Below are positions 32,516 through 59,949 of a DNA stretch of 64,000 nt, one piece after another. Within the stretch, counting starts at the first letter, position 1. Every line of letters begins with the position of its first letter. The DNA comes from Solimonas sp. (GTDB taxonomy: Bacteria; Pseudomonadota; Gammaproteobacteria; Nevskiales; Nevskiaceae). The notes under the pieces are model-generated. The model worked only from the letters and a program-made list of their open reading frames with translations. It was not told the origin of the DNA and made no database searches. Where the stretch lies: positions 4,644 to 68,643 of the forward strand of contig DATILC010000168.1 of the NCBI GenBank assembly GCA_035476855.1. Direction: 5' to 3'. The position numbers and the translations under genes are program-made.

Positions 32516-34180
32516 TCAGCCGATGCGATCGAAACGCAGGTTTCGGACGCGATCCATGCTGATCCAGAACCCGGTGACCTTGCCGTCCTTGCGATCGACC
32601 ACGAGCGAGGCGAAGGTCGGCAGCGGCTGTGCCGGGATACTGTGGAAAGTGCCGCAACCGAGAACGTCGGCGGACAGCGGCTCCAGCTCCCAGCGCGCCA
32701 TGCCCACCTCCGGCAGGAAGTCGACGAACAGCTTGCCCTCCCTGAGCACGATCTCCAGCTCCGCCCCGAACCCGGCAAGGCGGTAACGCCCGGCCAGTGC
32801 GGGCGCCAGCTCCTCCACCGTCGGCGGTGTGTCCGGGAGGCGCTCGAAGCACTCCCGTTCGCCGGCGATATGCACCTCCAGCATGGCGGGCGGTGTGCTG
32901 CTGTCCGGCAGTGTGCGGATCTCGATCCGGCTCATGGGCCCGTCAGGCAGGGCCAGGCCGTCACCCGCCTTCTGCAGGAGGCCCGCTGGTGCGTTGTAGA
33001 TGGACAGCAGTAACTCCGGGGCTCCGGTCGGAGTCTGCCGGGTCGTGATCGACAGCGGCGTGCGGGACTGCCGGCTGTACCAGCGACCCAGGACCGACGG
33101 GAAGTCCGCAGCCGGGGCCGGCTTTGCCGGAGGCGTCAGGCCTTCGCCTTCGAGCACGGCATCGACCACCTTGAAGGCAAGCGCTGGCGCGGACGCGTCC
33201 ATGCGGTTGGCCATGATCACGATGTCCAGCTCATGTTCCGGCACCGTCAGCATCTGGCATTGCGAGCCGAACGTGGCGCCGGCATGGTGAATCGCCTCGA
33301 TGCCGCGATAGCTGTCGCGCGCGATGCCCAGGCAATAGCCGGCCTGCAGGCCGCTGCGATAGGTCTGGCACTCGAGCATCCGCGTCCAGGTTGCGTCGCT
33401 GCCCAGCTTCTTATGCGGCCCGCGCAGGTGCGCGACCCAGGCCAGCATGTCGTCGATCGTGGAAATCATGCCGCCCGAACCCAGCACTTCGTCGGTCGGA
33501 TAGATGCCGCGGCGCCAACGGCCGTCGGGCAGGGGCATGTGCAGCGTCGCCATGTTCGGCACGATGTCCATGTCGCTGCGCAGCAGTGCGGTGTCGTTCA
33601 TGCCCAGGGGTGCGAAAACACGCCGGGCCATGAACTCCTCCCAGCTCAGACCCGAGACGCGCTCCGTGACCAGGGTCAGCAGGAGATAGCCTGCGTTGCT
33701 GTAGGCCATGCGCGTACCCGGCGCGAAGTTGAGATCGGTGAAGCGCGCCAGGAGCTGCAGCCCTCCCCCTGCCGGCATGTGGCCATAGTTGCCGCGGTTC
33801 AGGAAAAAGGCCGCGAACATCGGATCGCGCAGGCCACCGGTGTGATGCATGAGTTGCAGCAGGGTGGGCTCGCCGGAGATGTTGGTCAGCTCCGGCAGGT
33901 AACTTCGCACCGGCTGGCTGATGTCGAGCTTGCCCTCTTCAGCCAGCAGCATGATGCCGAAACTGCAGAAGTGCTTGGTGGTGGAGCCGATGCGCATGCG
34001 AGTGGCCGGCGTATTGGCCGTGGCATGCTCGATGCTCGACAGCCCGAAGCCGCGGCGATAGATCACCTTGCCCCGATGCGACAGGCCCACGACGAGGCCC
34101 GGTGCGTCACCGCGGTTCCACGGCTTGAACAGCTCATCAAGCTTCTGGATCGTGGTGAGTGCAGCTGCAGTGGTGGTCAT
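32516..34180 (-). CDS. Beta-lactamase-family serine hydrolase 1 (D-aminopeptidase/MlrB-like)
   Basis: GSTTK (SxxK), YSN, HAG, LMHHTGGLRD; long C-terminal extension; no signal peptide. Confidence 0.85.
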   Translation of the reverse strand: MTTTAAALTTIQKLDELFKPWNRGDAPGLVVGLSHRGKVIYRRGFGLSSIEHATANTPATRMRIGSTTKHFCSFGIMLLAEEGKLDISQPVRSYLPELTNISGEPTLLQLMHHTGGLRDPMFAAFFLNRGNYGHMPAGGGLQLLARFTDLNFAPGTRMAYSNAGYLLLTLVTERVSGLSWEEFMARRVFAPLGMNDTALLRSDMDIVPNMATLHMPLPDGRWRRGIYPTDEVLGSGGMISTIDDMLAWVAHLRGPHKKLGSDATWTRMLECQTYRSGLQAGYCLGIARDSYRGIEAIHHAGATFGSQCQMLTVPEHELDIVIMANRMDASAPALAFKVVDAVLEGEGLTPPAKPAPAADFPSVLGRWYSRQSRTPLSITTRQTPTGAPELLLSIYNAPAGLLQKAGDGLALPDGPMSRIEIRTLPDSSTPPAMLEVHIAGERECFERLPDTPPTVEELAPALAGRYRLAGFGAELEIVLREGKLFVDFLPEVGMARWELEPLSADVLGCGTFHSIPAQPLPTFASLVVDRKDGKVTGFWISMDRVRNLRFDRIG

Positions 34181-34437
34181 CGGCGAACGGTTCTCTTGGC
34201 GGCGCGCATGGCTGTCAGTGCGATCGAGTGTGCGTTGCCGCCGGATTTGCGGGCATCCATGAAAACACCGGATTCAGCCGGAGGCGGCTCGACGGGATGC
34301 GCCCCGCCCCATCCGTGGAACGACCGGCAGCTACCCGCCAGCACCTGATGCGGGAGAGTCAAACCCGGTGATTTTGCTGATAGGCGGTGCTGGACCTTGT
34401 TGGTCTACTACGTTCACGAATCCCACGGGCTCATTCC

Positions 34438-35484
34438 ATGAACGTCTCCTCCGTCACCCATTCCAACAACACCACCGTGGTGACGCTGCGCAGTCCCTAC
34501 CTGCTGTTCCTCGGCGAGGCCGACATCGACCAGCGCGCCAAGACCGCCTTCGGCTTGCGCGACTGGGCGCCCGGACGCTGCCTCGGCCAACTGCGGCTGC
34601 CGGCCTGCAATGTCACGCTCGGCCTGCCCGACATGACGCCGGCGGAAGCCGCGGCCAAGGGCGGCGGCTCGCTGGTCGTCGGAGTTGCCCCCAAGGGCGG
34701 GCGCATCGCCGAAAACTGGATTCCGGTGCTGCGCGCAGCGGTTGATGCCGGCCTCGACGTCGTCAGCGGCATGCACGATTCGCTGTCCGACGTTCCCGGC
34801 CTTGCAGCGCTCGCGCAAGCCAGGGGCGTGCGCCTGGTCGACGTGCGCAACCCGCCCCCCGGCCTGCCCACCGGCACCGGCCGCAAGCGCAGCGGCAAGC
34901 GTCTGCTCACGGTCGGCACCGACTGTGCGCTTGGCAAGAAGTACACCGCGCTGGCCATCGCAAACGCGATGCGCGAGCGCGGCTTCAGCGCGGATTTCCG
35001 CGCCACCGGCCAGACCGGCATCATGATTTCCGGCTCCGGGCTGCCGATGGATGCGGTGGTTGCCGACTTCAGCGCGGGTGCTGCCGAGGTGCTCTCGCCG
35101 GACGCCGCAGCTGACCACTGGGACATCGTCGAAGGCCAGGGCTCGCTGTTCCATCCCGCCTACGGCGGCGTCACGCTGGGCCTGCTGCACGGCTCGCAGC
35201 CGGATGCCATCGTGCTTTGCCACGACCCCGCGATCACGCGTATCAAGTCCTTGCCGGACTTCCCCACGCCGAGCCTCGAGGTCGCGGCGCAGGCCTACCT
35301 GCAGGCCGGCGCGCTCACCAATCCCGGCATCCGGCTGGTAGGCGTGAGCCTGATCACCCAGAAAATGGACGAAGCCACCCGCCGGCGCACGCTCGCCGAT
35401 GCCGAGCAACGCCTCGGCGTGCCGGCCTTCGATCCGCTCAGGACGCCGCTGCAGCCCCTGATCGATCGCATGCTCGCGGCATGA
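34438..35484 (+). CDS. dgcN: DUF1611 protein, DgcN-like D-glutamate N-acetyltransferase (copy 1)
   Basis: TVGTDCALGKKYT, FRATGQTGIMI, EGQGSL, HGSQPD; ATGA-coupled to the epimerase gene. Confidence 0.8.
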   Translation: MNVSSVTHSNNTTVVTLRSPYLLFLGEADIDQRAKTAFGLRDWAPGRCLGQLRLPACNVTLGLPDMTPAEAAAKGGGSLVVGVAPKGGRIAENWIPVLRAAVDAGLDVVSGMHDSLSDVPGLAALAQARGVRLVDVRNPPPGLPTGTGRKRSGKRLLTVGTDCALGKKYTALAIANAMRERGFSADFRATGQTGIMISGSGLPMDAVVADFSAGAAEVLSPDAAADHWDIVEGQGSLFHPAYGGVTLGLLHGSQPDAIVLCHDPAITRIKSLPDFPTPSLEVAAQAYLQAGALTNPGIRLVGVSLITQKMDEATRRRTLADAEQRLGVPAFDPLRTPLQPLIDRMLAA

Positions 35485-36464
35485 AGGAGAAGCTCAAGAT
35501 ACGGCGGCGCAGCTGGCGGCTGAAGGAGCCCTTCGTCATCGCGCGCGGAACGCGCACGGTGGCAACCAGCGTCGCTGTCGAACTGCAGGCCGGCGGCCAT
35601 GTCGGGCGTGGCGAGGCAGCGGGTGTTGCCTATCGCGGCGAGACGCCGGAATCGATGACGGCGCAGATCGAACAGGTTCGCCGGGCCGTGGAGTCCGGGG
35701 TCACGCAACGCGAGTTGCTGCAGCTGCTTCCCCCCGGCGGTGCACGCAATGCGGTCGATGCCGCGCTCTGGGACCTGCAGGCGAAGCAGACCGGCGTGCG
35801 CGCCTGGACGCGCGCGGGCTTGCCGCACGGCGGCCCGGTACAGAGCGCGGTCACCATCGGCATCCGCAGTCCTGAGGCATTCGACACGGCGGCGCGCAGC
35901 CTGGCCGATCATCCCTGGCTCAAGATCAAGGTCGATCGCAACGATCCGGTCGCCGCCGTCGCCGCCGTGCGGCGCGGGGCGCCGCATGCTCGCCTGATCG
36001 TCGACGCCAACCAGTCCTGGAAGCTCGAGGATCTCGCGAGATTTGCTCCGGCCTTGCTGAAGTACAAGGTGGACCTGCTGGAGCAGCCGCTTGCAGCTGA
36101 TGGTGATGAGGAGCTGTCAAAGGGCTGCAGCCCGATTCCGCTCTGCGCCGACGAGTCGATCAACACCATCGAGGACCTGCCGCGTCTGGTCGGGCGCTAC
36201 GACTACATCAACATCAAGCTCGACAAGGCCGGCGGCCTCACCGCCGCGCTGGAACTCGCGGATGCCGCGCAGCGCTCGGGCTTGCGTCTGATGAGCGGCT
36301 GCATGATCGGGGCCTCGCTGGCGATGGCGCCGGCGATGTTGCTCGGACAACTCTGCGAGATCAATGATCTCGATGGCGCCTTCCTGCTCGCCGAGGACTG
36401 GCCGGACGGCATCGTCTACGAGCGCGGCAACATGCTGCCGCCATGGCCGGCGTTCTGGGGCTGA
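35481..36464 (+). CDS. dgcA: Enolase-superfamily dipeptide epimerase / DgcA-like racemase (copy 1)
   Basis: KIK, DANQ, EQP, DES, NIKLDKAGG, DLDG motifs. Confidence 0.8.
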   Translation: MKEKLKIRRRSWRLKEPFVIARGTRTVATSVAVELQAGGHVGRGEAAGVAYRGETPESMTAQIEQVRRAVESGVTQRELLQLLPPGGARNAVDAALWDLQAKQTGVRAWTRAGLPHGGPVQSAVTIGIRSPEAFDTAARSLADHPWLKIKVDRNDPVAAVAAVRRGAPHARLIVDANQSWKLEDLARFAPALLKYKVDLLEQPLAADGDEELSKGCSPIPLCADESINTIEDLPRLVGRYDYINIKLDKAGGLTAALELADAAQRSGLRLMSGCMIGASLAMAPAMLLGQLCEINDLDGAFLLAEDWPDGIVYERGNMLPPWPAFWG

Positions 36465-36641
36465 TCCGGATGTTCGTCAAAGCGGCCCGGCCACCGGGAT
36501 CTGACTCAAGTAATCTGCGCCTTTACGGCTATCCGCCACGGCGCGGTTCAGGTGATATCACCGACTCAATTCATCCGGGCATCCATGAATAATCAGGTGA
36601 CCGAACTGCAACGCGCAGTCCATATCCCCGAGGGGCTGTTC

Positions 36642-39137
36642 ATGATCAAACTCTGCTCTCGATGCCTCTGGGTCCTGCTCTGGTTGACGTCGCTGGAGCT
36701 CCGGGCCCAGTCCGAGCAGCCACCGCCGGTTGCTGAGGCTGCGCCAGTCGCCGAACCTGCCGGCACGACAGCTGAGGATGAAGACACGCTGCAGTCGCTG
36801 CTGGACGACTTCGACAGCACGCCGCAGGAGGAGGGCGCAGCGCCGGAACCCGCGGATGCTGCCGGCGATACGCCTGCCGAGGCGCCGGTGCAGCAGGACG
36901 TTGCCGCTCCGGCCGCTGCCGAAGAACTTCCCGTCATCCGGCTGCAGGAGAAGCAGGCAGCTGCCCCCGTCCTCAAGGAAGCCGCACCCAGATCGCCCCA
37001 GCTCGAGGAAATCGTGGTGACCGCCACCAAGCGTTCCCAGGTCGCGCGCGACATTCCCAGCAGCATGTCGGTGCAGAGCGGCGAAAAGCTGGAGCAGCTC
37101 GGCATCCGCAAGGTCAAGGACATCTTCACGCTGATCCCCGGCGTCAACCTGCAGGACGAGATCGCCGGCCAGCAGCGCAAGATCTCGGTGCGCGGCGTGG
37201 GGCCGGACACCGGCACCAACCAGACGGTCGGCACGGTGCTGGGCGATGTGCCGATCTCCGATCCCTATGGCGCCACCACCATCGTCGATCCCAACCCCTG
37301 GGACATGCGCACGGTCGAGGTACTCAAGGGACCGCAGGGCTCGCTGTTCGGCGCCACCTCGCTGGCGGGACTGATCCGCTACGTCCCCAACGCGCCCGAG
37401 CTGGAGGTCTGGAAGGGCAAGGCCTTCTACGACTACACCACGGTGGATCGCGGCGGCTCGGCGCCTGCCTTCGGCGGCGCGCTCAATGTGCCGGTGGGCG
37501 ACAGCGTCGCCTTGCGGCTCGCCGGCATCTACCAGAACTCGCCGGGGGTGATCGACAGCGACAACCCCTCGCGCCGGGAAGAGGATGTCGACTCGGCCCA
37601 CAGCTGGAGCGGTCGCGCGATGGCGCTATGGCAGCCAAGCGAAGAGCTCAGCATCAACGCCATGTATTTGAAGGATCGTCGTGTTTCGGACGACATCAAC
37701 ATCGTCACCTTCCCGGAGCCCAGCTATTCGCGCGAGGACGCGCCGCAGGCCTCGCCCTCGGCCAACGGCTTCACCCTGGCCACGCTGGACATCCGCTACG
37801 CCTTCGACTGGGCCACGCTGGCCTCGATCAGCGGCTATCAGGAGAAGAACAGCTACAACGACATCGATACCAGCTATCTGGCGCAACCGATTGCGCAGGC
37901 CGGGGTGAGCTTCCTGCATGCCCAGCGCCAGGTGGATACGCATGGCCTGATGCAGGAGCTGCGGCTGACCTCGCCGGACGACGGCGACCTGACCTGGCTC
38001 GGCGGCGTCTACTTCAGCAGCTTCAGCCAGGCCATCGTGTCGGACCTGTACCTGGAGGGCACCAGCATCCTGGGGCCGCTCGCAGCGCTGCTGCCTCCGC
38101 CGCTGAGCGGGCTCATCTCGGAGAACGGCGTCTCCCTTGCCCGCGCCGGCTACGATCCGCTGGAGGCCAATGAGCTGGCGATCTATGGCGAGGCGAACTA
38201 TGACTTCAGCGACAGCTTGCGCCTGACGCTGGGCAGCCGCCTGTACAAGACGACCGTGGAAGGCACCTTCAAGTCCAGCGGCGCTTCCAGTGGCAACAAC
38301 GGCAAGAACACGGGCACGACCGAAAAGGGCTGGAGCCCCAAGATCGCGATCACCTGGCGCCCCTGGGACGACATCATGTTCTACGGCAACATCTCGCGCG
38401 GCTTCCAGTTCGGCGGCTTCAACCTGCCGACCATTTCGACCGGACAGACCCCGCTGACCTTCGAGTCCAGCAGCCTGTGGAACTATGAAATCGGCGCGCG
38501 CACCGACTGGTTCGATCGCACGCTGCGTCTCGACATCACCGCCTTCTTCCTGGACTGGACCAATCCGCAGGTCAGGCAGGTGGGCCCGGGCGGCCTGAGC
38601 GCCTACGTCGACAACGTCGGCGCCACGCACAACATCGGCGTGGAGGGAACCCTCAGCTGGGCCACGCCGATCGAAGGCCTGATCATCGAACAGACCGGCT
38701 CCTACATCGAGGCGCGCACCAGCGAGCCGTTCCAGGATGTCTCAGGCGAGGAAATCCCCGAAGGCACCCTGATGCCCAGCGCGCCGCGGGTGCAGGCGGT
38801 GACCACGCTCAGCTACAGCCGCCCCTTCGGCCCTTGGCTGACCCAGGCCTCGCTGATCAATTCCTTCCAGGACACGGCGTTCACCAGCATCGACCACAGC
38901 ACCGAGGTCGGCGGCTACAACCTGCTCGGCTTCACCTTCAACCTCACACGCAACGACCTGAGCTGGACTCCGTCGATCACCCTGTCGGTCAACAACATCA
39001 TGAACGAGCAAAAGCTGGCAGCCGGATTCGGCCCCGCGGGCGGCGACGTGGGCCCGCTGGGCCGCATCGTCGCCGATTCCTCCTACGTCTATACCCAGCC
39101 TCGCTCCATCATCCTGCGCGGCGCCATCGAGTTCTGA
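36642..39137 (+). CDS. TonB-dependent receptor 1
   Basis: Signal peptide, EEIVVTATKR TonB box, VEVLKGPQGSLFG plug motif, C-terminal Phe. Confidence 0.93.
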   Translation: MIKLCSRCLWVLLWLTSLELRAQSEQPPPVAEAAPVAEPAGTTAEDEDTLQSLLDDFDSTPQEEGAAPEPADAAGDTPAEAPVQQDVAAPAAAEELPVIRLQEKQAAAPVLKEAAPRSPQLEEIVVTATKRSQVARDIPSSMSVQSGEKLEQLGIRKVKDIFTLIPGVNLQDEIAGQQRKISVRGVGPDTGTNQTVGTVLGDVPISDPYGATTIVDPNPWDMRTVEVLKGPQGSLFGATSLAGLIRYVPNAPELEVWKGKAFYDYTTVDRGGSAPAFGGALNVPVGDSVALRLAGIYQNSPGVIDSDNPSRREEDVDSAHSWSGRAMALWQPSEELSINAMYLKDRRVSDDINIVTFPEPSYSREDAPQASPSANGFTLATLDIRYAFDWATLASISGYQEKNSYNDIDTSYLAQPIAQAGVSFLHAQRQVDTHGLMQELRLTSPDDGDLTWLGGVYFSSFSQAIVSDLYLEGTSILGPLAALLPPPLSGLISENGVSLARAGYDPLEANELAIYGEANYDFSDSLRLTLGSRLYKTTVEGTFKSSGASSGNNGKNTGTTEKGWSPKIAITWRPWDDIMFYGNISRGFQFGGFNLPTISTGQTPLTFESSSLWNYEIGARTDWFDRTLRLDITAFFLDWTNPQVRQVGPGGLSAYVDNVGATHNIGVEGTLSWATPIEGLIIEQTGSYIEARTSEPFQDVSGEEIPEGTLMPSAPRVQAVTTLSYSRPFGPWLTQASLINSFQDTAFTSIDHSTEVGGYNLLGFTFNLTRNDLSWTPSITLSVNNIMNEQKLAAGFGPAGGDVGPLGRIVADSSYVYTQPRSIILRGAIEF

Positions 39138-39139
39138 GC

Positions 39140-40036
39140 ATGGACAACACCCACGAAGCGCCGATGATCGAAGATCGTCACCTCACGGTGGACAAGCACC
39201 TGCTGCACATCCACAGCGGCGGCGTGACCAGCAAGCTTCCGACCATCGTCCTGGAAGCGGGATGCGGCTGCACCCTGCAAACCTGGCATACGATCGAACA
39301 GGCGCTGGGTGCGCAGACGCGCGTTCTCGCTTACGAGCGCGCCGGTGTCGGCAGCAGCGACTGCAAGGTCGACAGCACGAGCGCCGCAGCTGTCGCGCAG
39401 CGCCTGGCGTCGCTGCTGCAGGCCACGCAGACCCCCACGCCGGTGATCCTGGTCGGCCATTCCCTCGGCGGACTGTATTCCCGCTACTTCGCCGCGACCC
39501 GGCCGGAGCAGGTTGCCGGCCTGGTACTGCTCGACGCCTCGCCGGAAGACCTGCCCACCCCCCGCAGCTACTCCTGGAAACCCCGGATCCTGATGTGGCT
39601 GCTGCACGGCCTCGCGAGACTGCGCGTGATCCAGCCACTGGCCGCTCTCCTGAGCAAGCCGGGCACCGATCTCGCAGCACTGAAGCACCATCTGAACACC
39701 ATAGGCCGGTTCCGGCATGTGAAGACTGCCTTGATGGAGATCGGTGCGAAGGCGGACATCCAGGCTGAAGTCGCCAGGCTCTCACTGGCAGCACAGTTGC
39801 CGGTCCTCGCCGTGAGCGCCGGAGCCATGCCACCCGGCGCGCCCCAGGAGCAACACGACGCGGTTCAACGCAGCCATGACAAGCTGGCCGCTGCCGGGGC
39901 GCCGCCCTACAGCCGCCACTTCCGCGTCGAAGGCGCCACCCACATGTCGCTGCTGACGGATCCGCAGTACGCCGCGGTGGTGGCGAAGCAGGTGCTGGAT
40001 TTCGCAAGGCAGATCCAGCAAAAGACTGGCGCCTGA
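39140..40036 (+). CDS. Alpha/beta hydrolase 1
   Basis: YERAGVGSS, GHSLGG nucleophile elbow, C-terminal His (ATHMSL). Confidence 0.88.
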   Translation: MDNTHEAPMIEDRHLTVDKHLLHIHSGGVTSKLPTIVLEAGCGCTLQTWHTIEQALGAQTRVLAYERAGVGSSDCKVDSTSAAAVAQRLASLLQATQTPTPVILVGHSLGGLYSRYFAATRPEQVAGLVLLDASPEDLPTPRSYSWKPRILMWLLHGLARLRVIQPLAALLSKPGTDLAALKHHLNTIGRFRHVKTALMEIGAKADIQAEVARLSLAAQLPVLAVSAGAMPPGAPQEQHDAVQRSHDKLAAAGAPPYSRHFRVEGATHMSLLTDPQYAAVVAKQVLDFARQIQQKTGA

Positions 40037-40092
40037 GGCGCAAGTCGACCGGGATCGTTACGGGACTTTCGGCTTCGGGCCCGAGGCCGTGA

Positions 40093-42826: not shown

Positions 42827-42903
42827 GACGGATTCTCTCGGGATGGATGATGGCGTTCCTGCCAGCAGCATGACCCCGGCCCGATCGGCCGTCATCGGTA
42901 GTT

Positions 42904-47064: not shown

Positions 47065-47068
47065 GACA

Positions 47069-47334
47069 AGGGCCTGTTAACGCTATGAACGCCGCCGCGA
47101 CGGAGACCGTTTTGGTGCAGGGCTATGTCCCGGCACGCGCCGTGTACTCGAAGTACATCAGCGGGGCGGGACGACGCCGTGCGCCAAAACGGTCCCGCCC
47201 TCCGGGTGCCACCATATTTTCCGCCATGCTGTGTTACTCGTCGGTTACTTGGAACCACCAAGCTCCCTCCTCGCGTCGTGCCTGGCGGAAAATCTGGTGG
47301 CATCGCAGCGACGTTCATAGCGTTAACAGGCCCT
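47069..47334. mobile_element. 266-bp MITE with 23-bp perfect terminal inverted repeats and two internal hairpins
   Basis: AGGGCCTGTTAACGCTATGAACG / CGTTCATAGCGTTAACAGGCCCT; internal IRs 47106-47119/47180-47193 and 47208-47226/47283-47301. Confidence 0.85.
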
Positions 47335-47335
47335 A

Positions 47336-48547: not shown

Positions 48548-48644
48548 CAAGAGGTCCCCCGGTATTTCCAGTGTTTTCACGAGTCGCCGCCGGTCGCGGC
48601 GGCTGCTTTACTGACAACTTCGCAGCTCCACCCAGAGATCTTTC

Positions 48645-50709: not shown

Positions 50710-50725
50710 GAGCGCAGGAGCGACG

Positions 50726-52363: not shown

Positions 52364-53234
52364 AGGCCCCGATGACTTCGACGCACTGTTCCGGGCCGCC
52401 GGAGTCGATGGCTGGCTGCATGCGCTGGACCTGAGCAGCGGCCGCGAGATCGACCATGGCGCCGATCAGCCGGTGGTGGCCGCCTCGGTGTTCAAGATCC
52501 CGGTGCTGGTCGAACTGTGCCGGCAGGCCGACGCTGGGCAGATCGATCTCGCCGAAGCTGTCCATGTCCCTGCCGAAGACCGCGCCGCGGGCTCCACCGG
52601 CCTGTCGATGGGCCTGGATGCCGCTACGCACAGCTGGCGCGACCTGGCCCTGTCGATGATCGTGGTCAGCGACAACGCCACCACCGATGTCTTGTGCGCA
52701 CGGCTGGGCCTCGACCGCATCAACGCGGCGATGGCTGCGCTAGGCCTGCCGGGGACGCAGCTCGAAGGTGATTGCCGGTACCTGTTCGCACAGATGGCCG
52801 CAGATGCCGGCTGTACGGGCCTGGCCGACTTCCCGCCGAAACCTGATCCGGAACTGCTGGGCCGCCTGCGCGTACTTCAACCCTTGCTCACCAACCGCAC
52901 GACGCCACGCGAAGCCACGCGCCTGCTGGTCGCGATCTGGCGCGACCAGGCCGCCTCGACGGAGAGCTGCGCGTTGATGCGCCGCATCCTCGGCGCGCAG
53001 GTCTGGCCGCATCGCCTCGCGTCCGGCTTCCCCGAGGACGAGATTCGCACGGCCGGCAAGACCGGCACCCTGATCATCGTGCGCAACGAGGCGGGTGTCG
53101 TCAGCTACCCCGACGGCAGCCACTACGCCGTATCGGTCTTCACCCGCAGCCACGAAGTACGCGCGAAGCACCCCGCGCAGGACCGCGCGATCGGCCAGGC
53201 AGCGCGCCTCGCCGTGGACCTGCTGCGGGGCTGA
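52356..53234 (+). CDS. Class A beta-lactamase-fold serine hydrolase lacking Glu166
   Basis: SVFK, SDN and KTG motifs; omega-loop segment TQLEGDCRYLF in place of TRLDRWEPELN. Confidence 0.8.
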   Translation: MPEGPDDFDALFRAAGVDGWLHALDLSSGREIDHGADQPVVAASVFKIPVLVELCRQADAGQIDLAEAVHVPAEDRAAGSTGLSMGLDAATHSWRDLALSMIVVSDNATTDVLCARLGLDRINAAMAALGLPGTQLEGDCRYLFAQMAADAGCTGLADFPPKPDPELLGRLRVLQPLLTNRTTPREATRLLVAIWRDQAASTESCALMRRILGAQVWPHRLASGFPEDEIRTAGKTGTLIIVRNEAGVVSYPDGSHYAVSVFTRSHEVRAKHPAQDRAIGQAARLAVDLLRG

Positions 53235-53270
53235 TCGGCCAGGCCCATCAACAGGCCCTTGCATGTTGCT

Positions 53271-53430: not shown

Positions 53431-53467
53431 TCACCCAGTATTTCCGCAGATAGCCGGTGGTCCGCCG

Positions 53468-55165
53468 ATGGGAGACGATCTGGACATCACGATCCGGATG
53501 CCCCCCATGACCGATGTGCCTACCCCCAGCCTCGCCCAGCAGCTCGACGAACTGTTCAAGCCCTGGAACCGCAGCGACGCCCCCGGCTTCGTCGTCGGTG
53601 TGCGTCACAAGGGCAGCCTGATCCATCGCCGCGGCTTCGGCCTGGCCAGCATCGAACATGCCGCGGCGAACACGCCGCAGACGCGCATGCGCATCGGCTC
53701 CACCAGCAAGCAGTTCACCTGCCTGGCGGTCCTGCTGCTGGAAGAGGAAGGCAAGCTCGACATCGACCAGCCGGTGGGAGATTACCTGCCGGAACTGGCC
53801 GGCAAGGCCAGCGGCGAGCCGACACTGCGCCAGCTGATGCACCACACCGGCGGTATCCGCGATCCGTTCTTTGCGGCCATCGTGCACAACCGCGGCGCCT
53901 GGGGCCACATGCCGGCCGGCGGCAGCCTGCAATTGATGCTGCGCCATGACGGACGCAACTTCGCGCCCGGCACCGACATGATCTACACCAACGCCGGCTA
54001 CACGCTGCTGTCGCTGGTGGTCGGCCGCGTCAGCGGCCTGAACTTCGCCGATTTCCTCTACGAGCGCATCTGCGCGCCGCTGGGGATGCTGGACACCCGC
54101 CTGCTCTCCAGCGACATGGAGATCCTGCCCAACATGGCGACGCTGCACCTGCCGCAGGCCGACGGCGGCTGGCGTCGCGGCATTTATCCCACCGATGACC
54201 TGCTGGGCTCCGGCGGCATCATCTCCACGGTCGACGACATGCTGACCTGGACCGCGCACCTGCTCAGCCCGCAGAAGCGCGTCGGCAGCGCGGCCAGCTG
54301 GCAGAAGATGCTGCAGCCCTTGCGCCTCGCCAATGGCACCGAGGGCAGCTATTGCCTGGGCCTGACGCGCCAGACCTTCCGCGGGCTCGACACCATCCAC
54401 CATGCCGGCGCCACGCTGGGCGCGCAGTGCCAGATGCTGATCGCGCCTGCCGAGGAACTCGAGATCGTCGTCATGGCCAACCGCATGGACGGTTCCGCCC
54501 CGCTGATGGCGCAGAAGATCGTGGAACTGGTGCTCGGCAACCGCCTGCCGCCGCCGACCCCGCCGCCCGCGGCCGATGACCATCCCGGCCTGCTGGGCCG
54601 CTGGTACTCCAGCAGCGCGCGAACGCTGATCGACATCAGCCGCATCAAGGCACTGCCCGACGCACCGGAAGGCATGATGCTCTCCGCCCACGGCTCTCCC
54701 GTCGGCCTGCTTACCGGGCGCGATGGCCGGCTCGGCATCAACAACTCGCCGACCAGCCCGATCGACCTGCTGGCGCCCCCAGCCGGTGAAACCCCCGCCT
54801 CGCTCGACTTCCGCCTGGCCGGCGAGACGCGGAGCTTCGAGCGCCTGCCACAAAAGGGACCGGCCGCCGCCGATCTCGCCGCCGCTTTCTGCGGCCGCTA
54901 CCGCAGCGTCGACTTCGGCCCCGAGATCGAGGTCCTGCTGCAGGACGACAAGCTCTACATCGACTACCAGCCGGCCTGCGGCAAGGCCCTGTGGGAGCTG
55001 CTGCCGCTGAGCGAGGACGTCGTCGCCTGCGGTGCCTTCCACAGCGTCCCCGCGCTGCCGCTGCCGAACAACGCCGTGCTGACGCTGGAGCGCCGTGACA
55101 CCAGGGTCGTCGCCTTCACCCAGGATGCCGACCGCGTGCGCGGCCTGCGCTTCGAGCGCTGCTGA
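53468..55165 (+). CDS. Beta-lactamase-family serine hydrolase 3 (D-aminopeptidase/MlrB-like)
   Basis: GSTSK, YTN, HAGA; close paralog of 32516-34180; start 53468 or 53507. Confidence 0.85.
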   Translation: MGDDLDITIRMPPMTDVPTPSLAQQLDELFKPWNRSDAPGFVVGVRHKGSLIHRRGFGLASIEHAAANTPQTRMRIGSTSKQFTCLAVLLLEEEGKLDIDQPVGDYLPELAGKASGEPTLRQLMHHTGGIRDPFFAAIVHNRGAWGHMPAGGSLQLMLRHDGRNFAPGTDMIYTNAGYTLLSLVVGRVSGLNFADFLYERICAPLGMLDTRLLSSDMEILPNMATLHLPQADGGWRRGIYPTDDLLGSGGIISTVDDMLTWTAHLLSPQKRVGSAASWQKMLQPLRLANGTEGSYCLGLTRQTFRGLDTIHHAGATLGAQCQMLIAPAEELEIVVMANRMDGSAPLMAQKIVELVLGNRLPPPTPPPAADDHPGLLGRWYSSSARTLIDISRIKALPDAPEGMMLSAHGSPVGLLTGRDGRLGINNSPTSPIDLLAPPAGETPASLDFRLAGETRSFERLPQKGPAAADLAAAFCGRYRSVDFGPEIEVLLQDDKLYIDYQPACGKALWELLPLSEDVVACGAFHSVPALPLPNNAVLTLERRDTRVVAFTQDADRVRGLRFERC

Positions 55166-55175
55166 GGAACTGCCC

Positions 55176-57662
55176 ATGAAAACCACCTCCACACGCGCAC
55201 GCCACCTGGGCGCCGCCGCCCTGCTCGGTCTCAGCAGCGCCGCCGGCGCACAGACCCAGGACAGCGGCGACGCCCAGGACTTCGACCTGGACTCGCTGCT
55301 GGCCGAAGAGCCAGCCGCCGAAGCGCCGCCGCCGGCGGCGGCAACCGAATCACCTCCGCAGCCGCAGCAGCAGGCATCACAGCAGCCGGAAGAGCAGGCG
55401 CAGCAGGAGACAGCGGCCCAGGTGGCTGAGCCGGCCGAACCCGCTGAGGCAATCGAGACAGTCGAGACCATCCCGGTGCAGCCGCTGCATCCGGAGAAGG
55501 AACCCGCGCCGCTGGCGGAAGCGCCACATCGCCCGCAGATCGAGGAGATCATCGTCACCGCGACCAAGCGCGAGCAGTCGGTGCGCGAGATCCCGCTCAG
55601 CATCGCTGCGCTGACCGGCGAGAAGCTGGAGGAACTCGGCGCGCACAAGCTCAAGGATTTCATCCAGCTGGTGCCGGGCATGAACACGCAGGACGAGATC
55701 GCCGGCATTCCGCGCAAGCTGAGCGTGCGCGGCGTCGGCCCGGACACCAACACCAACCAGACCGTCGGCGTGGTCTTCGGCGACATGCCGCTGACCGATC
55801 CCTACGGCTCCTTCACCATCGCCGACCCCGATCCCTGGGACCTGGCGACGGTGGAAGTGCTCAAGGGCCCGCAGGGCACGCTGTTCGGCGCGACCTCGCT
55901 CGGCGGCCTGATCCGCTACGTCCCCAACAAGCCGAAGTTCGACACATGGGAAGGCCGCGGATCGGTCGACTGGGTCAGCGTCAGCGGCGGCGAGTCCGCG
56001 CTGTCCTACGCTGGCATGCTCAACGTCCCGGTCGGCGAGAGCTTCGCGCTGCGCGTCGCTGGTTCGCTGCAGCACCAGCCAGGCGTGATCGACATCGATA
56101 CCCCGGGCCGCGTGGAAGACAACGTCGACGACCAGGACAACTTCGCCGGGCGCGCCATCGCGCTGTGGCAGCCGCTGGACGAACTCAGCCTCAACCTCAG
56201 CTACATGCGCTCGCAGCGCAAGGGCGACGAGCTGGGCTATACCACCAATGACCAGCACCGCCCGCGCGACGAGGCGCCGGCGCCGTCACCCTACGAGAAC
56301 GGCTTCACCGCCACCACGCTGGACGCGCGCTACGACTTCGACTGGGCCCAGCTCGTGTCGGTCAGTGGCTACCAGACAAAGCTCGCCTACGCCGACGCCG
56401 ATACCTCCTACCTGGTGCGGCCGGCGGCGATGGCCGGCATCCGCAGCGTTCATGCCGAGCGCCTGGTCGAAACCACCGGCCTGCTGCAGGAACTGCGGCT
56501 GGTATCCACCGGCGACGGTCCATGGACCTGGCTCGGCGGTGTCTTCTACAGCGGCTACGAGGCCGAAATCACCGGAAAGCTGCAGATCTTCCCCGGCTTC
56601 GAAGCCCTGGGCTCGCTGCTGCAGCAACTGCCGCCAGGCTTCCTTGGCCTGCCGATCGATGGTGACAGCATCACCGGCACCGAGACCGGCTTCCATCCGC
56701 TGGAGGCAGAGGAAAGCGCCTTGTTCGGCGAGGTCTCGCGCATGTTCGGCAGCGACTGGACGCTGACCCTCGGCGGCCGCTACTACAGGACCAGCGTCTC
56801 CGGCACGCCTCCCGCCAACCAGCGTGGCGGCGGCTCAGCCGACGCTGACAGCACGCTGGAACAGAAGAGCAATGGCTTCAGCCCCAAGATCGCGCTGAGC
56901 TGGAAGCCCAGCGACGACCTGATGCTCTACGGCAATATCTCGCGCGGATTCCAGTTCGGCGGCTTCAACCTGAGCGTGGTGGGACCGGTGCCACTCACCT
57001 ACGAATCCAGCACGCTGTGGAACCACGAGATCGGCCTGCGCAGCGACTGGTTCGAGCGCACGCTGCGCTTCGACCTCACTGCGTTCTACCTGGACTGGAC
57101 CCGGCCGCAGGTCCGCCAGGTCGGCGTCTTCCCCACCGACTCGTACATCGCCAATGTTGGTAGCGCGAGCAGCACCGGCGTGGAGACCACCATCCGTTGG
57201 CTGCCACCGCTGGAGGGCCTCTCGCTGGAAGTGTCGGCCTCCTACATCAAGGCCGTCACCACCGAGGAGTTCGAATCCTCCAGCTCCGGCACCATTCCGG
57301 AAGGCACGGAGATGCCCAGCTCGCCGAAGCTGCAGGCCACGGCGACGATCAGCTACGCTCATGCCTTCGGCAACTGGCAGACGATGTCCTCGCTGATCGG
57401 TACGCACCAGGGCAAGGCCTTCAACAACATCGAACATGCGGTCGAGGTCGGTGGCTACGAGCTGCTGCACTTCAACCTCGGCATCAGCCGTCCGGACCTG
57501 TCGTTCAGGCCGTCGCTGAGCATTGGCGTCAACAACATCTTCGACACCGCTGCGATCTCGGCGGCACTGGGCGGCGCCGAAGCCGAGGAGCTTCTGGTCG
57601 GCCGTCCGCTGGTCTACACCACGCCGCGTACGCTGCGCATCAACCTGTCGGCGAGTTTCTGA
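55176..57662 (+). CDS. TonB-dependent receptor 2
   Basis: Signal peptide, EEIIVTATKR, VEVLKGPQGTLFG, C-terminal Phe; paralog of 36642-39137. Confidence 0.93.
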   Translation: MKTTSTRARHLGAAALLGLSSAAGAQTQDSGDAQDFDLDSLLAEEPAAEAPPPAAATESPPQPQQQASQQPEEQAQQETAAQVAEPAEPAEAIETVETIPVQPLHPEKEPAPLAEAPHRPQIEEIIVTATKREQSVREIPLSIAALTGEKLEELGAHKLKDFIQLVPGMNTQDEIAGIPRKLSVRGVGPDTNTNQTVGVVFGDMPLTDPYGSFTIADPDPWDLATVEVLKGPQGTLFGATSLGGLIRYVPNKPKFDTWEGRGSVDWVSVSGGESALSYAGMLNVPVGESFALRVAGSLQHQPGVIDIDTPGRVEDNVDDQDNFAGRAIALWQPLDELSLNLSYMRSQRKGDELGYTTNDQHRPRDEAPAPSPYENGFTATTLDARYDFDWAQLVSVSGYQTKLAYADADTSYLVRPAAMAGIRSVHAERLVETTGLLQELRLVSTGDGPWTWLGGVFYSGYEAEITGKLQIFPGFEALGSLLQQLPPGFLGLPIDGDSITGTETGFHPLEAEESALFGEVSRMFGSDWTLTLGGRYYRTSVSGTPPANQRGGGSADADSTLEQKSNGFSPKIALSWKPSDDLMLYGNISRGFQFGGFNLSVVGPVPLTYESSTLWNHEIGLRSDWFERTLRFDLTAFYLDWTRPQVRQVGVFPTDSYIANVGSASSTGVETTIRWLPPLEGLSLEVSASYIKAVTTEEFESSSSGTIPEGTEMPSSPKLQATATISYAHAFGNWQTMSSLIGTHQGKAFNNIEHAVEVGGYELLHFNLGISRPDLSFRPSLSIGVNNIFDTAAISAALGGAEAEELLVGRPLVYTTPRTLRINLSASF

Positions 57663-57670
57663 AGACTGCG

Positions 57671-58522
57671 ATGAGCACCGGCACCTCTTTGTTTCACCGC
57701 ATGGTCGGCCAGCCCGGCGAACTGCCGGACATCGTGCTCGAGTCCGGCGGCCTCGGCAGCTCCGACGACTGGCGGCATGTCGAAGGCCTGCTCGCGCGCC
57801 ATACCCGCGTGCTGGCCTACGACCGCGCCGGCATGGGGCAAAGCCCGGCGGACGAGGCTGGCTACAGCGCGAGTGCCGTGACCGCGCGCCTGACCGCCCT
57901 GCTCGATCGGTTGCAATGGAAGCGCCCGGTGCTGCTGGTCGGCTATTCGCTGGGCGGTCTCTACGCGCGGCAATTCGCGGCCAGCCAGCCACAGCGCGTC
58001 GCCGGCCTGATATTGCTCGACGCCACACCGACAGCCCATGTGTTCCCGGCAGTGGCAATGCGCCGGGCGCAGCGCGTGATCTGGCTGCTGCACTGGGTTG
58101 CACGCCTGGCCCCGGCCGGCCTGCTCCAGCGGCTGTTCGGCTCCAAAACGGACACCGCACGATCCCAACGGCAACTGGCGCAGCTCCGCACGCCGGACTA
58201 CCTGCCGCGCATGCGTGCCGAGCTGACTGCCATGACCGGCGTGCAAGCTGAAGTGGGCCGCATCGCGGCAAGGCCGCAGCATCCGGTGATGGCGATTCTC
58301 GCCGGCACCCGGCCCGCGCAGATGACGGATGCCGACTTCGCCCACATGCAGACCCTGCACCGCGAACTGGCGAGCGTCTCGCCGGCGCCGCTGAGCCAGC
58401 TCACCGTCGTCGACGCCGCCAACCACGGCAGCCTGCTCAGCGATCCCGCCAACGCCGCCCAGGTCGCCGACCACATTCTCGCCTTCGCGCGCAGCCTGCC
58501 GCACACACCGGAAAAACCATGA
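57671..58522 (+). CDS. Alpha/beta hydrolase 2
   Basis: YDRAGMGQS, GYSLGG, ANHGSL; paralog of 39140-40036. Confidence 0.88.
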   Translation: MSTGTSLFHRMVGQPGELPDIVLESGGLGSSDDWRHVEGLLARHTRVLAYDRAGMGQSPADEAGYSASAVTARLTALLDRLQWKRPVLLVGYSLGGLYARQFAASQPQRVAGLILLDATPTAHVFPAVAMRRAQRVIWLLHWVARLAPAGLLQRLFGSKTDTARSQRQLAQLRTPDYLPRMRAELTAMTGVQAEVGRIAARPQHPVMAILAGTRPAQMTDADFAHMQTLHRELASVSPAPLSQLTVVDAANHGSLLSDPANAAQVADHILAFARSLPHTPEKP

Positions 58523-58905
58523 GCATCGAAGTCATCGGCAAGAGCCCCACCCTGCCCAACGGCATGACCATTCCGCTGTCGCCGGCCATCCGCGCGGGCC
58601 AGCTGATCTTCGTCTCGGGCCAGCTGGGCCTGGACGGCAACCGCGCACTGGTCGGCCCCGACATCGAGGCGCAGACACACCAGGTGATGGCGAACCTGCG
58701 CGCGGTCCTGCAGCAGGCTGGCGCGGACCTCGACCGCGTCGTGAAAGCCACTGTCTGGCTCACCGACAAGACGGACTTCGCCGCCTTCAACGCGATCTAC
58801 CGCGAATACTTCCCGCAGCACCCGCCGGCACGCTCGACGGTGGTCAGCGAGTTGCTGATCCCGGGCGCACGCCTCGAGATCGACGTCATCGCCAGCCTCG
58901 ACTGA
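58519..58905 (+). CDS. RidA/YjgF family enamine/imine deaminase
   Basis: IFVSGQLG, FNAIYREYF, PARST (catalytic Arg), LEID; ATGA-coupled. Confidence 0.9.
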   Translation: MSIEVIGKSPTLPNGMTIPLSPAIRAGQLIFVSGQLGLDGNRALVGPDIEAQTHQVMANLRAVLQQAGADLDRVVKATVWLTDKTDFAAFNAIYREYFPQHPPARSTVVSELLIPGARLEIDVIASLD

Positions 58906-58908
58906 ATC

Positions 58909-59949
58909 TCAGCCCAGCAGCCGCGACAGCTGCACGCGGTTGCCGATACCGAGCTTGCGGAACACGTTGTGCAGCTGGAACTCGACCGTGCGCGGAGAGC
59001 GGCACAGGCGCTCGGCGATCTGCTCGTTGCGCAGGCCCTCGACCACCAGGCGCGCGACGCGCTGCTCCGAAGGCGAGAGCTGCTTCAGCACAGCCAGCGC
59101 CTGCTGTGACAGCTCGCCGGCCCGGCCCTGGGTCTGCGCATCCATGAGCCGCAGGACGTAGCCACCGGGCGTCGCCGACAGCTTCGCGGAGAGTTCCGGC
59201 AGTTCCGGGTGCTGAAGATTCAGCGCCGCATCGCCCCCCTGGAAAGCGATGCGCAGCGCCGCCGGCAGGCCAGCCTGCTCCTGTCCGCGCCGCAGGGCGC
59301 GATTCCAGCGACTGAACTCGACCTCGCCGTGCGCGCTCTGGTACAGCAGCGTGCCGCGCCGGTCGAAGAACACCAGCGCCTCGGGCGAATTCTGCAGGTA
59401 GCCCTGCAACAAGGTGCTCAGGCTGCGCTCCTGCGCGAGCGTGCGCAGCCGCGTGAGGCCGGCATCGATCATCGGGTGCATGTATTCGAGGAAGGCCTTC
59501 TCCTCCTGCGGGATGCTCTCGGGGCCGAACACCGCCAGCACACTGTGCGGATCCGTCTTGCGCCAGAACGCCAGCGCGACGAAGTCGGTCCATTCCGGGT
59601 CCGGCTCCTGCGCCAGGCGGCGCTGCGGTGCGTCCGGATCCTCGGCGGCGATCTGCCCATAGGTGCAGGACTCGATGCGCGGATGGCGCGCCAGGTAGGG
59701 CGCGGTCACGGAGAGGCTCTTCGACGGCACATAGTCCGGCTTGCGCGGCGCCACCAGGTGATATCGCAGCTGCGTGGGCTCGAAGTCGACGATGTCCGAA
59801 AACAGCGCGCAGGAGCGTTCCGGCATTTCCCGGCGCATCAGGTTCAGGCTGGCACGCCAGAAGCCGTCCATGTCCACCGCGCTCTGCAGCGCGACGATCT
59901 GGGCACGCGAGGAGCGAGAGGCGTGGACCGCAGGAGAGCTGGCAAGCAT
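58909..59949 (-). CDS. LuxR-family regulator 2, paralog of 40093-41223
   Basis: HTH LSPSEQRVARLVVEGLRNEQIAERLCRSPRTVEFQLHNVFRKL; shared N-terminal motifs. Confidence 0.88.
   Translation of the reverse strand: MLASSPAVHASRSSRAQIVALQSAVDMDGFWRASLNLMRREMPERSCALFSDIVDFEPTQLRYHLVAPRKPDYVPSKSLSVTAPYLARHPRIESCTYGQIAAEDPDAPQRRLAQEPDPEWTDFVALAFWRKTDPHSVLAVFGPESIPQEEKAFLEYMHPMIDAGLTRLRTLAQERSLSTLLQGYLQNSPEALVFFDRRGTLLYQSAHGEVEFSRWNRALRRGQEQAGLPAALRIAFQGGDAALNLQHPELPELSAKLSATPGGYVLRLMDAQTQGRAGELSQQALAVLKQLSPSEQRVARLVVEGLRNEQIAERLCRSPRTVEFQLHNVFRKLGIGNRVQLSRLLG

Follow-up and report, generated by a model that had tools for sequence, protein, structure and literature searches.

A candidate locus for the import, cytoplasmic hydrolysis and salvage of D-residue peptides in a Solimonas-like soil bacterium

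Ordinary proteases do little against peptides that contain D-amino acids, and a lasting stock of organic nitrogen is bound in such molecules, which include fragments of peptidoglycan, cyclic lipopeptide antibiotics and biosurfactants, and cyanotoxins. Which genes would a bacterium need to feed on them? This question is raised by a locus of about 27 kb (positions 32516-59949) in a 64,000-nucleotide stretch of DNA, hereafter the window, that comes from a soil metagenome and belongs to a Solimonas-like bacterium (contig DATILC010000168.1). Soil bacteria degrade cyclic lipopeptides, thereby deciding the success of biocontrol; the enzymes and genes responsible are largely unknown, especially in Gram-negatives (PMC13188892, PMC12516957, PMC11203913). 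The original prediction made for this DNA had read the locus as an uptake and catabolism system for peptides containing D-amino acids and had not recognised the combination of genes as a described pathway. Our full-text literature search agreed with the latter point, as it found neither a description of the cluster nor a characterised identical one. We consider it probable that the locus is a modular catabolic system, in which D-residue peptides would be taken up intact and hydrolysed in the cytoplasm, and their D-residues salvaged. The substrates would be peptides too large or too unusual for ordinary permeases and L-specific peptidases.

Gene content and conservation of the locus

Raw lists of open reading frames were full of spurious frames because of the high GC content of the window (~66-70%). 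Genes were called by third-position GC content (GC3), their starts were refined by hand, and domains were assigned to the encoded proteins by Pfam and NCBIfam scans. Every gene listed in the original prediction was recovered where it had been placed, and the 20 genes of the locus all had assignable domains:

32516-34180, minus strand: S12 serine hydrolase 1 (S12-1), D-aminopeptidase/MlrB-like, 554 amino acids (aa); PF00144, E 8e-59
34438-35484, plus strand: DgcN-like D-Glu N-acetyltransferase 1 (DgcN1; DUF1611); PF07755 and PF17396; alternative start 34387
35481-36464, plus strand: DgcA-like N-acetyl-D-Glu racemase 1 (DgcA1; enolase superfamily); NCBIfam DgcA
36642-39137, plus strand: TonB-dependent receptor 1 (TBDR1); Plug and TonB_dep_Rec domains; signal peptide, N-terminus MIKLCSRCLWVLLWLTSLELRAQS
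39140-40036, plus strand: alpha/beta hydrolase 1 (abH1), esterase/lactonase-like; Abhydrolase_1/6
40093-41223, minus strand: LuxR/GerE regulator 1 (LuxR1), 376 aa; GerE helix-turn-helix (HTH) at residues 320-373, unannotated N-terminal sensor region
41348-42895, minus strand: M17 leucyl aminopeptidase; PF00883, E 4e-110; alternative start 42826
42904-44046, minus strand: DauA-like FAD-dependent D-amino-acid dehydrogenase; PF01266 (DAO family)
44156-45607, plus strand: MFS_2 (GPH-type) inner-membrane transporter; PF13347, E 2e-52
45604-47064, plus strand: M81 metallopeptidase, MlrC homologue; PF07364 and PF07171
47336-48547, plus strand: threonine ammonia-lyase with ACT domain (ThrDH); NCBIfam NF005600, 550.6 bits, above the cutoff of 496
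48645-49715, plus strand: DgcN-like copy 2 (DgcN2); NCBIfam DgcN
49723-50709, plus strand: DgcA-like copy 2 (DgcA2); NCBIfam DgcA
50726-52363, plus strand: S12 serine hydrolase 2 (S12-2), D-aminopeptidase/MlrB-like, 545 aa; PF00144; start with GGAG ribosome-binding site
52356-53234, plus strand: class-A-fold (PBP-A/BlaB-like) serine hydrolase; PF13354, E 6e-57; predicted cytoplasmic
53507-55165, plus strand: S12 serine hydrolase 3 (S12-3), 552 aa; PF00144; alternative starts 53468 and 53498; modelled with AF2
55176-57662, plus strand: TonB-dependent receptor 2 (TBDR2); Plug and barrel; signal peptide, N-terminus MKTTSTRARHLGAAALLGLSSAAGAQT
57671-58522, plus strand: alpha/beta hydrolase 2 (abH2); Abhydrolase_1/6
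58519-58905, plus strand: RidA imine/enamine deaminase; TIGR00004, 111.5 bits, above the cutoff of 106.25
58909-59949, minus strand: LuxR/GerE regulator 2 (LuxR2), 346 aa; two PAS/GAF-like sensor modules and HTH

All 20 genes fit the scheme proposed below. Characterised enzymes share 22-35% identity with their homologues in the window; it is from this homology that we infer the enzymology, including specificities and the order of steps, as well as regulation and substrate.

The locus consists of two paralogous modules that flank a core. The left module comprises S12-1 (minus strand), DgcN1-DgcA1-TBDR1-abH1 and LuxR1 (minus strand); the right module comprises DgcN2-DgcA2-S12-2-class-A-fold-S12-3-TBDR2-abH2-RidA and LuxR2 (minus strand). 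In the core, the M17 and DauA-like genes (minus strand) diverge from MFS_2-M81-ThrDH, which continues into the right module. Identity between paralogues was 47-57% for the S12 enzymes (57% between S12-1 and the cluster paralogue g16), 66% for DgcN, 45% for DgcA, 51% for the receptors, 36% for the alpha/beta hydrolases and 44% for the two LuxR proteins, which had been predicted to be related. Stop-to-start overlaps, also predicted, were found at four gene pairs: DgcN1/DgcA1 (ATGA, 35481), MFS_2/M81 (GTGA, 45604), S12-2/class-A-fold (52356 versus 52363, 8 bp) and abH2/RidA (ATGA, 58519). Most other same-strand genes were 2-16 bp apart, including each receptor and the alpha/beta hydrolase predicted to follow it (2 bp in the left module, 8 bp in the right), and only three spacers were larger (177, 97 and 272 bp). 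These overlaps and short gaps link transport, hydrolysis and salvage genes in what looks like an operon structure. No terminator-like site was found on the plus strand between 46000 and 58905; overall, the promoter and terminator scans returned site counts no higher than in shuffled sequence and are uninformative.

Signal peptides were found on TBDR1 and TBDR2 only; the S12, M81, abH and class-A-fold proteins all start without one. The hydrolases therefore appear to be cytoplasmic and an imported substrate would be broken down there, which fits the predicted topology of outer-membrane import followed by cytoplasmic cleavage.

The synteny check suggested with the original prediction gave the same partners from two anchors. 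Alignment of M81 orthologues yielded 80 loci. TonB receptor, abH, S12, DgcN/DgcA and MFS_2 genes accompanied M81 in 5 of 7 Nevskiales-like loci. The 29 loci from Burkholderiales had S12 in 21 cases, in 15 of them immediately upstream of M81, and a TonB receptor in 19. Among 41 loci from Alphaproteobacteria, S12 was present in 3 and a TonB receptor in 4. The alphaproteobacterial M81 orthologues adjoin Opp-type peptide ABC transporters, or penicillin amidase, M20 and amidase genes, and a peptide or amide substrate therefore seems general for the M81 family. Anchoring on S12 gave 77 loci, with M81 in 52, TonB receptor in 52, DgcA in 39, DAO in 26, LuxR in 18, abH in 18 and class-A-fold genes in 6, all lower bounds because many contigs were short. 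Collectively, the two anchors recovered the same partners in Nevskiales and Burkholderiales, among them TonB receptor, abH, DgcN/DgcA and a DauA-like oxidase, and the cluster is not a chance grouping. The conditions for refutation given with the original prediction, as far as sequence and literature can address them, all turned out in favour of the prediction.

The module is collinear in four Solimonas genomes, at 67-90% amino-acid identity. The stretch from M17 through TBDR2 is collinear (67-88% identity) in two Solimonas sp. and one unclassified Pseudomonadota metagenome-assembled genome (MAG); in the cultured Solimonas sp. K1W22B-7 collinearity extends from the DauA-like gene through LuxR2 and the TetR gene that follows it. 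Two proteins of the right-hand cluster were compared with this strain (CP031704.1) and gave 86-88% identity. In the same strain an insertion sequence (IS; rve integrase-type transposase, locus L107, 15544-16548) lies between RidA and the LuxR regulator, and three other loci (L110, L111 and L118) carry a second LuxR and TonB-receptor module after the TetR gene; modules therefore appear to have been shuffled between close relatives.

Two gene fusions join components of the cluster. In four Burkholderiales loci (L004, 9595-11970; L014; L017; L019), from Roseateles toxinivorans, Paucibacter sp. PLA-PC-4, Roseateles sp. SMAGNO57 and Variovorax sp. GB4P3, M81 carries a C-terminal alpha/beta hydrolase domain of ~300 aa that is homologous to abH1 (E 1e-23 to 1e-26). 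In Steroidobacter flavus (L108, 11089-14004) and Peristeroidobacter soli (L109, 11272-16794), a homologue of the LuxR regulators (40-41% identity) stands directly upstream of a fusion of S12 (PF00144) with Amidohydro_3, a Pfam family that includes the D-aminoacylases; the fusion protein is 946-971 aa long, and of these two loci only that of Peristeroidobacter has a TonB receptor gene between regulator and fusion. Cobalamin genes lie on the other side in both. A different extension of M81, of 292 aa, was seen in an alphaproteobacterial MAG (L032).

Predicted steps from import to salvage

The two paralogous TonB receptors, as their domains and signal peptides suggest, would carry the intact substrate across the outer membrane. 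Both have an acidic low-complexity linker of ~100 aa, rich in Pro, Ala, Glu and Gln, between signal peptide and plug (~36708-37000 and ~55257-55560), with a common D-x-L-x-S-L-L motif. They scored 26-32 bits on the SusC-type model TIGR04056 (cutoff 368), and the cluster contained no SusD-like gene. The MFS_2 protein, from the position of its gene and the translational coupling to M81, would pass the substrate to the cytoplasm; its score on TIGR00792 was 101.7 bits, below the cutoff.

In the cytoplasm, the alpha/beta hydrolases would open an ester, lactone or acyl linkage. Matches of abH2 in the PDB were weak and comprised esterases, perhydrolases and 3-oxoadipate enol-lactonase. The MlrC-like M81 zinc peptidase may then cut an unusual bond, for example beside D-Glu or a beta-amino acid. 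M81 aligned over its full length with microcystinase C (PDB 7ylq, E 3e-80) and was 34-35% identical to MlrC of genuine mlr loci (Novosphingobium, Sphingosinicella), which were found by searching with the 7ylq MlrC sequence. The zinc site of MlrC is formed by E56, H150, D184, H186 and H208 (PMC12474180). Their counterparts in M81 are E11, H105, D139, H141 and H163, each numbered 45 lower; none of them varies among 24 homologues. On the NCBIfam exception model for MlrC the protein reached 294.9 bits against a cutoff of 999. By these comparisons, the window M81 is an MlrC homologue and not an orthologue.

Removal of D-residues would fall to the three D-aminopeptidase/MlrB-like S12 enzymes and to the PBP-A-like class-A-fold enzyme, and that of L-residues to the M17 aminopeptidase (433 bits on the NCBIfam leucyl aminopeptidase model, cutoff 471). 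All three S12 proteins have the S-T-[TS]-K and Y-x-N motifs (S66-T-T-K and Y160-S-N in S12-1). The AF2 model of S12-3, built on 46 homologues (pLDDT 92.6), was compared with known structures by Foldseek. The best match was the D-aminopeptidase (DAP) of Ochrobactrum anthropi (1ei5; TM 0.77/0.82 over 539 columns, covering all three domains), followed by Pab87, the DL-peptidase Lip3, SurE, ClbP, LACTB, the R61 DD-peptidase, dHy1 and alkaline D-peptidase. The modelled fold thus has mostly D-residue-recognising enzymes as neighbours, which suggests D-stereospecificity for the S12 enzymes of the window. DAP (MEROPS S12, PRK13128) and the window enzymes are alike in length and in their cytoplasmic location, and have in common a three-domain architecture (penicillin-binding fold plus two beta domains) and the SxxK, YxN and HxG motifs. 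They differ in that identity is only 22%, that there are three paralogues in the window, and that S12-1, S12-2 and S12-3 reach 156, 151 and 167 bits on the NCBIfam D-aminopeptidase model, which aligns full-length, against a cutoff of 443.

MlrB, a protein of 541 aa that has itself been modelled on 1ei5, has S77, K80, Y171, N173, D245 and H307 as key residues (PMC11070527). The counterparts of these six MlrB/DAP active-site residues in S12-3 (S65, K68, Y160, N162, D243/D244 and H299), together with G301, were unchanged across the 46 homologues. The penicillin-binding-protein fold of the S12 enzymes is also that of the DL-peptidases Lip3 and Lip7 (PMC12903863) and of the peptidases TriF and BogQ (Li et al. 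2018, cited in PMC12516957), all of which cleave at D-residues in lipopeptides of neighbouring bacteria; TriF and BogQ are cited there as resistance enzymes. Lip3 (9sn1) was the fourth-ranked structural match of S12-3. Lip3 and Lip7 carry signal peptides, are secreted and reshape lipopeptides (PMC12903863), whereas the window enzymes appear cytoplasmic and belong to an import-and-catabolism locus with salvage genes.

The class-A-fold protein has SVFK (SxxK), SDN and KTG motifs, and its most likely start at 52356 leaves it without a signal peptide. Its best PDB matches were 4ewf, BlaB (2wuq) and Tll2115 (2j7v, PBP-A), which are non-beta-lactamase proteins of the class A fold. The original prediction had called the protein Glu166-less. 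This was not confirmed, as local alignment to a manually entered TEM-1 sequence stopped before the omega loop; a manual register placed Cys183 at position 166.

Two salvage routes are predicted for the released residues. Acidic D-amino acids would be N-acetylated and then racemised to the N-acetyl-L form by the two DgcN/DgcA pairs. The DgcN-DgcA route converts D-Glu to N-acetyl-L-Glu (Yu et al. 2023, ISME J 17:537, cited in PMC12363236), and the enzymes have been assigned EC 2.3.1.312 and 5.1.1.25 (PMC11747546). In the window, DgcN1 and DgcN2 scored 449.5 and 460.4 bits over the full length of the DgcN model, just under the cutoff of 480; DgcA1 passed the DgcA cutoff of 400 with 414.7 bits and DgcA2 fell just under it with 386.5. 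Both DgcA copies scored lower on the L-Ala-D/L-Glu epimerase model (270 and 255 bits). The genes of each pair are adjacent and co-oriented; they overlap by 4 bp in pair 1, stand 7 bp apart in pair 2, and are adjacent in related loci too. The known pathway acts on free D-Glu, whereas the window pairs sit in a transport-and-peptidase locus, and the divergence between the copies suggests two acidic D-amino-acid specificities.

Neutral and basic D-amino acids would be oxidised by the DauA-like dehydrogenase to imino acids, which RidA would convert to 2-oxo acids; Thr and Ser would pass through threonine ammonia-lyase and RidA. In agreement with its predicted identity, the flavoprotein matched Pseudomonas aeruginosa DauA (PDB 3nyc/6p9d) over its full length (residues 8-376, E 7.5e-104). 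P. aeruginosa DauA is not known to act on D-Glu or D-Asp, a gap that DgcN/DgcA would fill, so that the two routes would be complementary. Unlike the DauA/DauB system for D-arginine catabolism, the cluster has no DauB-type partner. Its DauA-like gene is divergent from the MFS_2-M81 operon and is paired with TBDR-abH-S12-M81 in relatives.

The two LuxR-type proteins, one-component regulators of a lineage-specific family (88 proteins, all from Nevskiales or Steroidobacterales), probably induce the modules when the substrate or one of its breakdown products is present. The AF2 model of LuxR2 (pLDDT 86.9) shows the two PAS/GAF-like modules with a long helix between them, before the HTH; Foldseek matched it at low TM to VqmA, phytochrome GAF-PHY, DhaR-N and SdiA, and a PDB sequence search with the regulator matched the HTH domain only. 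This modelled architecture fits a ligand-sensing one-component regulator, and since the fold matches are low-TM and of PAS/GAF type, they name no ligand. The 10-mer GTGAAAACAC, allowing at most one mismatch, occurs four times in the 64 kb, always inside the cluster; three copies are intergenic (34259, 41265 and 48571) and one is in S12-1 (33612). The chance expectation was 1.18 and four sites were reached in 1 of 100 shuffles. Similar sequences (CATC-n-GTG-AAAnCAC) lie upstream of DgcN or in divergent promoters in four other loci (L008, L009, L010 and L012). We regard the 10-mer as a weak lead to an operator for the LuxR-type regulators.

All components come from known families and, as far as gene content tells, the logic of the locus resembles that of mlr and other peptide-catabolic loci. 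The mlr pathway of Sphingomonadaceae (MlrA-MlrB-MlrC-MlrD), which dismantles a nonribosomal peptide containing D-residues, likewise pairs an S12 enzyme of ~540 aa (MlrB) and an M81 enzyme (MlrC) with a transporter. The window S12 enzymes are 28-31% identical to MlrB (29% for S12-1 and a genuine MlrB) and have the same active-site residues at near-equal spacing, and M81 keeps the zinc site. The differences are equally clear. MlrA is a ring-opening protease of the CPBP/Abi type, and no Abi/CPBP domain was found in the 20 cluster genes and 8 flanking genes of the window or in the locus of R. toxinivorans DSM 16998. The mlr transporter MlrD belongs to PTR2/POT; the window has no MlrD and would rely on TonB receptors and MFS_2 instead. 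MlrB has a signal peptide and is periplasmic, whereas the window S12 enzymes have none and appear cytoplasmic. Unlike mlr, the window adds esterase-type alpha/beta hydrolases and built-in genes for D-amino-acid salvage (DgcN/DgcA, DauA-like, RidA). The theme of adjacent S12 and M81 genes, judged from the sequences, is an MlrB-MlrC-like pair and clearly not the mlr pathway. In the mlr loci of Novosphingobium sp. MD-1 (L087) and Sphingosinicella microcystinivorans (L088), a TonB receptor (~12870-14850) lies ~3.5 kb downstream of mlrC; it is ~25% identical to the window receptors, which may be coincidental, as Sphingomonads have many such receptors.

Substrate and competing explanations

Among possible substrates of the predicted uptake and catabolism system, we favour nonribosomal peptides and depsipeptides, such as cyclic lipopeptides or cyanopeptides, over cell-wall peptides. 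This choice is suggested because M81 is closely linked, or even fused, to a hydrolase of the esterase/lactonase type, because a TonB receptor suits molecules above ~600 Da, because there are several S12 paralogues, and because the S12::Amidohydro_3 fusion of Steroidobacterales points to N-acyl-D-amino acids. It is also suggested by Roseateles toxinivorans DSM 16998, an mlr-negative microcystin degrader which we take to be type strain 2C20. This strain has the compact cluster ECF sigma-FecR-TBDR-MFS-S12-[M81::abH]-DgcA-DgcN-Asp/Glu racemase, and a second such locus (L135). Strain 2C20 of Roseateles (Paucibacter) toxinivorans degrades microcystins, anabaenopeptins and aerucyclamides by a route that has not been identified (PMC8068134). 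This compact cluster, the homology of S12 and M81 to MlrB and MlrC, the layout of two paralogous modules around a core and the M81::abH fusion go beyond what the original prediction had noted.

A bolder proposal, which we hold only as a long shot, is that this family of loci provides Beta- and Gammaproteobacteria with an mlr-independent route for microcystins, nodularin and other cyclic nonribosomal peptides, including the cyclic lipopeptides of Pseudomonas and Bacillus. The cyclic peptide would be imported intact by TonB receptor and MFS transporter, opened in the cytoplasm by abH/M81 and trimmed by the D-aminopeptidase/MlrB-like enzymes; D-Glu would be salvaged by the two DgcN/DgcA pairs along with another acidic D-residue, for example D-(methyl)Asp. 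The compact cluster from TonB receptor to racemase would then explain microcystin degradation by DSM 16998, and anabaenopeptins and aerucyclamides would be further candidate substrates.

The locus is in any case a concrete genetic candidate for lipopeptide degradation and for mlr-negative microcystin degradation, as it joins a putative dedicated outer-membrane importer to MlrB/MlrC-type hydrolases and D-residue salvage. Two cultured strains, Solimonas sp. K1W22B-7 and R. toxinivorans DSM 16998, carry it, and it would be a source of new D-selective peptidases and esterases for use in biocatalysis and in the bioremediation of cyanotoxins.

Several points weigh against the D-peptide system proposed here. 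The S12 enzymes are only 22-31% identical to D-aminopeptidase and MlrB, the S12 family also holds esterases and beta-lactamases, and MlrB cleaves between D-Ala and an L-residue rather than as an aminopeptidase. The MFS_2 family is best known for the transport of glycosides and not of peptides, and three of the four DgcN/DgcA proteins narrowly miss the NCBIfam equivalog cutoffs. M17, ThrDH and the class-A-fold gene are mostly confined to Solimonas or Nevskiales; as accessory genes they say little about the core function. The 10-mer was not recovered at one mismatch or less in the closest relatives (L001-L003), and its copy at 48571 abuts a GC hairpin. Finally, the public sequencing runs with cluster sequence are DNA only, mostly soil metagenomes, with no RNA run among them.

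The same enzymes could instead scavenge peptidoglycan, namely stem peptides (L-Ala-gamma-D-Glu-mDAP-D-Ala-D-Ala) released by other bacteria, which is the most credible of the alternatives though still unlikely. In this scheme D-Ala would be split off by the S12 and PBP-A-like enzymes and oxidised by the DauA-like enzyme, while D-Glu would be the residue at which M81 cuts and which DgcN/DgcA recycle. No soil source of peptides with D-Glu and D-Ala is more abundant than peptidoglycan, and the genes for D-Glu salvage are the salvage component most consistently linked across loci. In addition, the relatives of the class-A-fold protein include Tll2115, the DD-peptidase PBP-A, and the R61 DD-peptidase is among the structural neighbours of S12. 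Domain scans, however, found no AmpD/AmiD amidase, NagZ, MurQ, AnmK, LdcA or MpaA-type genes in or beside the cluster. The esterase-type hydrolase, tightly linked and sometimes fused, has no evident task on a stem peptide whose bonds are all amides, ThrDH would have no role either, and tri- to pentapeptides of 400-550 Da normally use porins and Opp/Mpp ABC systems.

A TonB receptor next to an esterase could also serve xenosiderophore use, in which a ferric siderophore made of a D-residue peptide would be imported and destroyed by esterase and peptidases, freeing its iron; we find this improbable. The siderophore receptor model TIGR01783 was indeed the best subfamily match of both receptors, the R. 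toxinivorans receptor has an STN domain and its gene stands after an ECF sigma/FecR pair, in the classic layout for siderophore signalling, and Fes, IroE and PfeE are esterases that act on imported siderophores. The TIGR01783 scores (129.2 and 160.6 bits) nevertheless lie below the cutoff of 223.5. Neither receptor has a Fur-box-like site nearby; the closest candidates in the window differ at 6 or more of 19 positions and lie elsewhere, and the cluster contains no periplasmic binding protein, ABC importer, FhuF/PepSY reductase or biosynthesis gene. Moreover, the release of iron needs none of the DauA-like, ThrDH, RidA and DgcN/DgcA enzymes, which belong to nitrogen and carbon catabolism and account for much of the gene content.

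That there is no single system, and that unrelated amino-acid and peptide operons are merely neighbours, is less plausible again. It would accord with the near-restriction of M17, ThrDH and the class-A-fold gene to Solimonas or Nevskiales, with the variable order of modules (MAG_258 and Solimonas BWSM_106 have the left module at another place) and with the genes for branched-chain 2-oxo-acid dehydrogenase next door. It is disfavoured by the reciprocal co-occurrence of TonB receptor, S12, M81, DgcA and DAO across two proteobacterial classes, by the M81::abH and S12::amidohydrolase fusions, by translational coupling across functional categories (MFS/M81 and abH/RidA), and by the dedicated, narrowly distributed regulator family that accompanies the modules. 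An island for beta-lactam resistance or sensing, suggested by four beta-lactamase-fold proteins (three with PF00144, one with PF13354) that match class C and class A beta-lactamase models weakly, is very unlikely, because none of the four has a signal peptide, the scores are far under the beta-lactamase cutoffs (58 versus 415 bits; 89.4 versus 200 bits for the class-A-fold protein on bla_class_A), the S12 proteins have full-length D-aminopeptidase architecture and the neighbouring genes are catabolic.

Flanking genes and insertions

The boundaries of the locus appear sensible because the flanking functions are unrelated: UvrB, DeaD, an acyl-CoA dehydrogenase, WS/DGAT and an OLD-type nuclease on the left, and TetR, a Leu-type dehydrogenase, AsnC and Lpd on the right. 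The right flank (59988-64000) holds, in full, the TetR gene, a Leu/Phe/Val-type dehydrogenase (61458-62564), an AsnC/Lrp regulator and dihydrolipoamide dehydrogenase. In Solimonas sp. K1W22B-7, Lpd-E2-E1beta directly follow TetR, and the dehydrogenase and AsnC genes are thus extra in the window lineage. These neighbourhoods suggest that a branched-chain 2-oxo-acid dehydrogenase cluster adjoins the peptide locus. On the left, a short-chain dehydrogenase gene (31691-32464) on the same strand as S12-1 lies 52 bp downstream of it and may be co-transcribed; no conservation of this linkage was seen among the other loci.

Further left, a lone OLD/GajA-like ATPase-TOPRIM reading frame of 635 aa (24311-26218) lies in an island of low GC content (0.56 versus ~0.66 around it). 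PADLOC returned only partial GajA/Old/AriA matches for it and its neighbours (best E 4e-17), with no GajB-like partner adjoining.

Between the M81 and ThrDH genes lies one further element:

47065-47335, no strand assigned: insertion resembling a miniature inverted-repeat transposable element (MITE), 271 bp

The element has perfect 22-bp terminal inverted repeats at 47070-47091 and 47312-47333. No second copy was found in the window, and the insertion site is only 30-38 bp wide in the Solimonas relatives.

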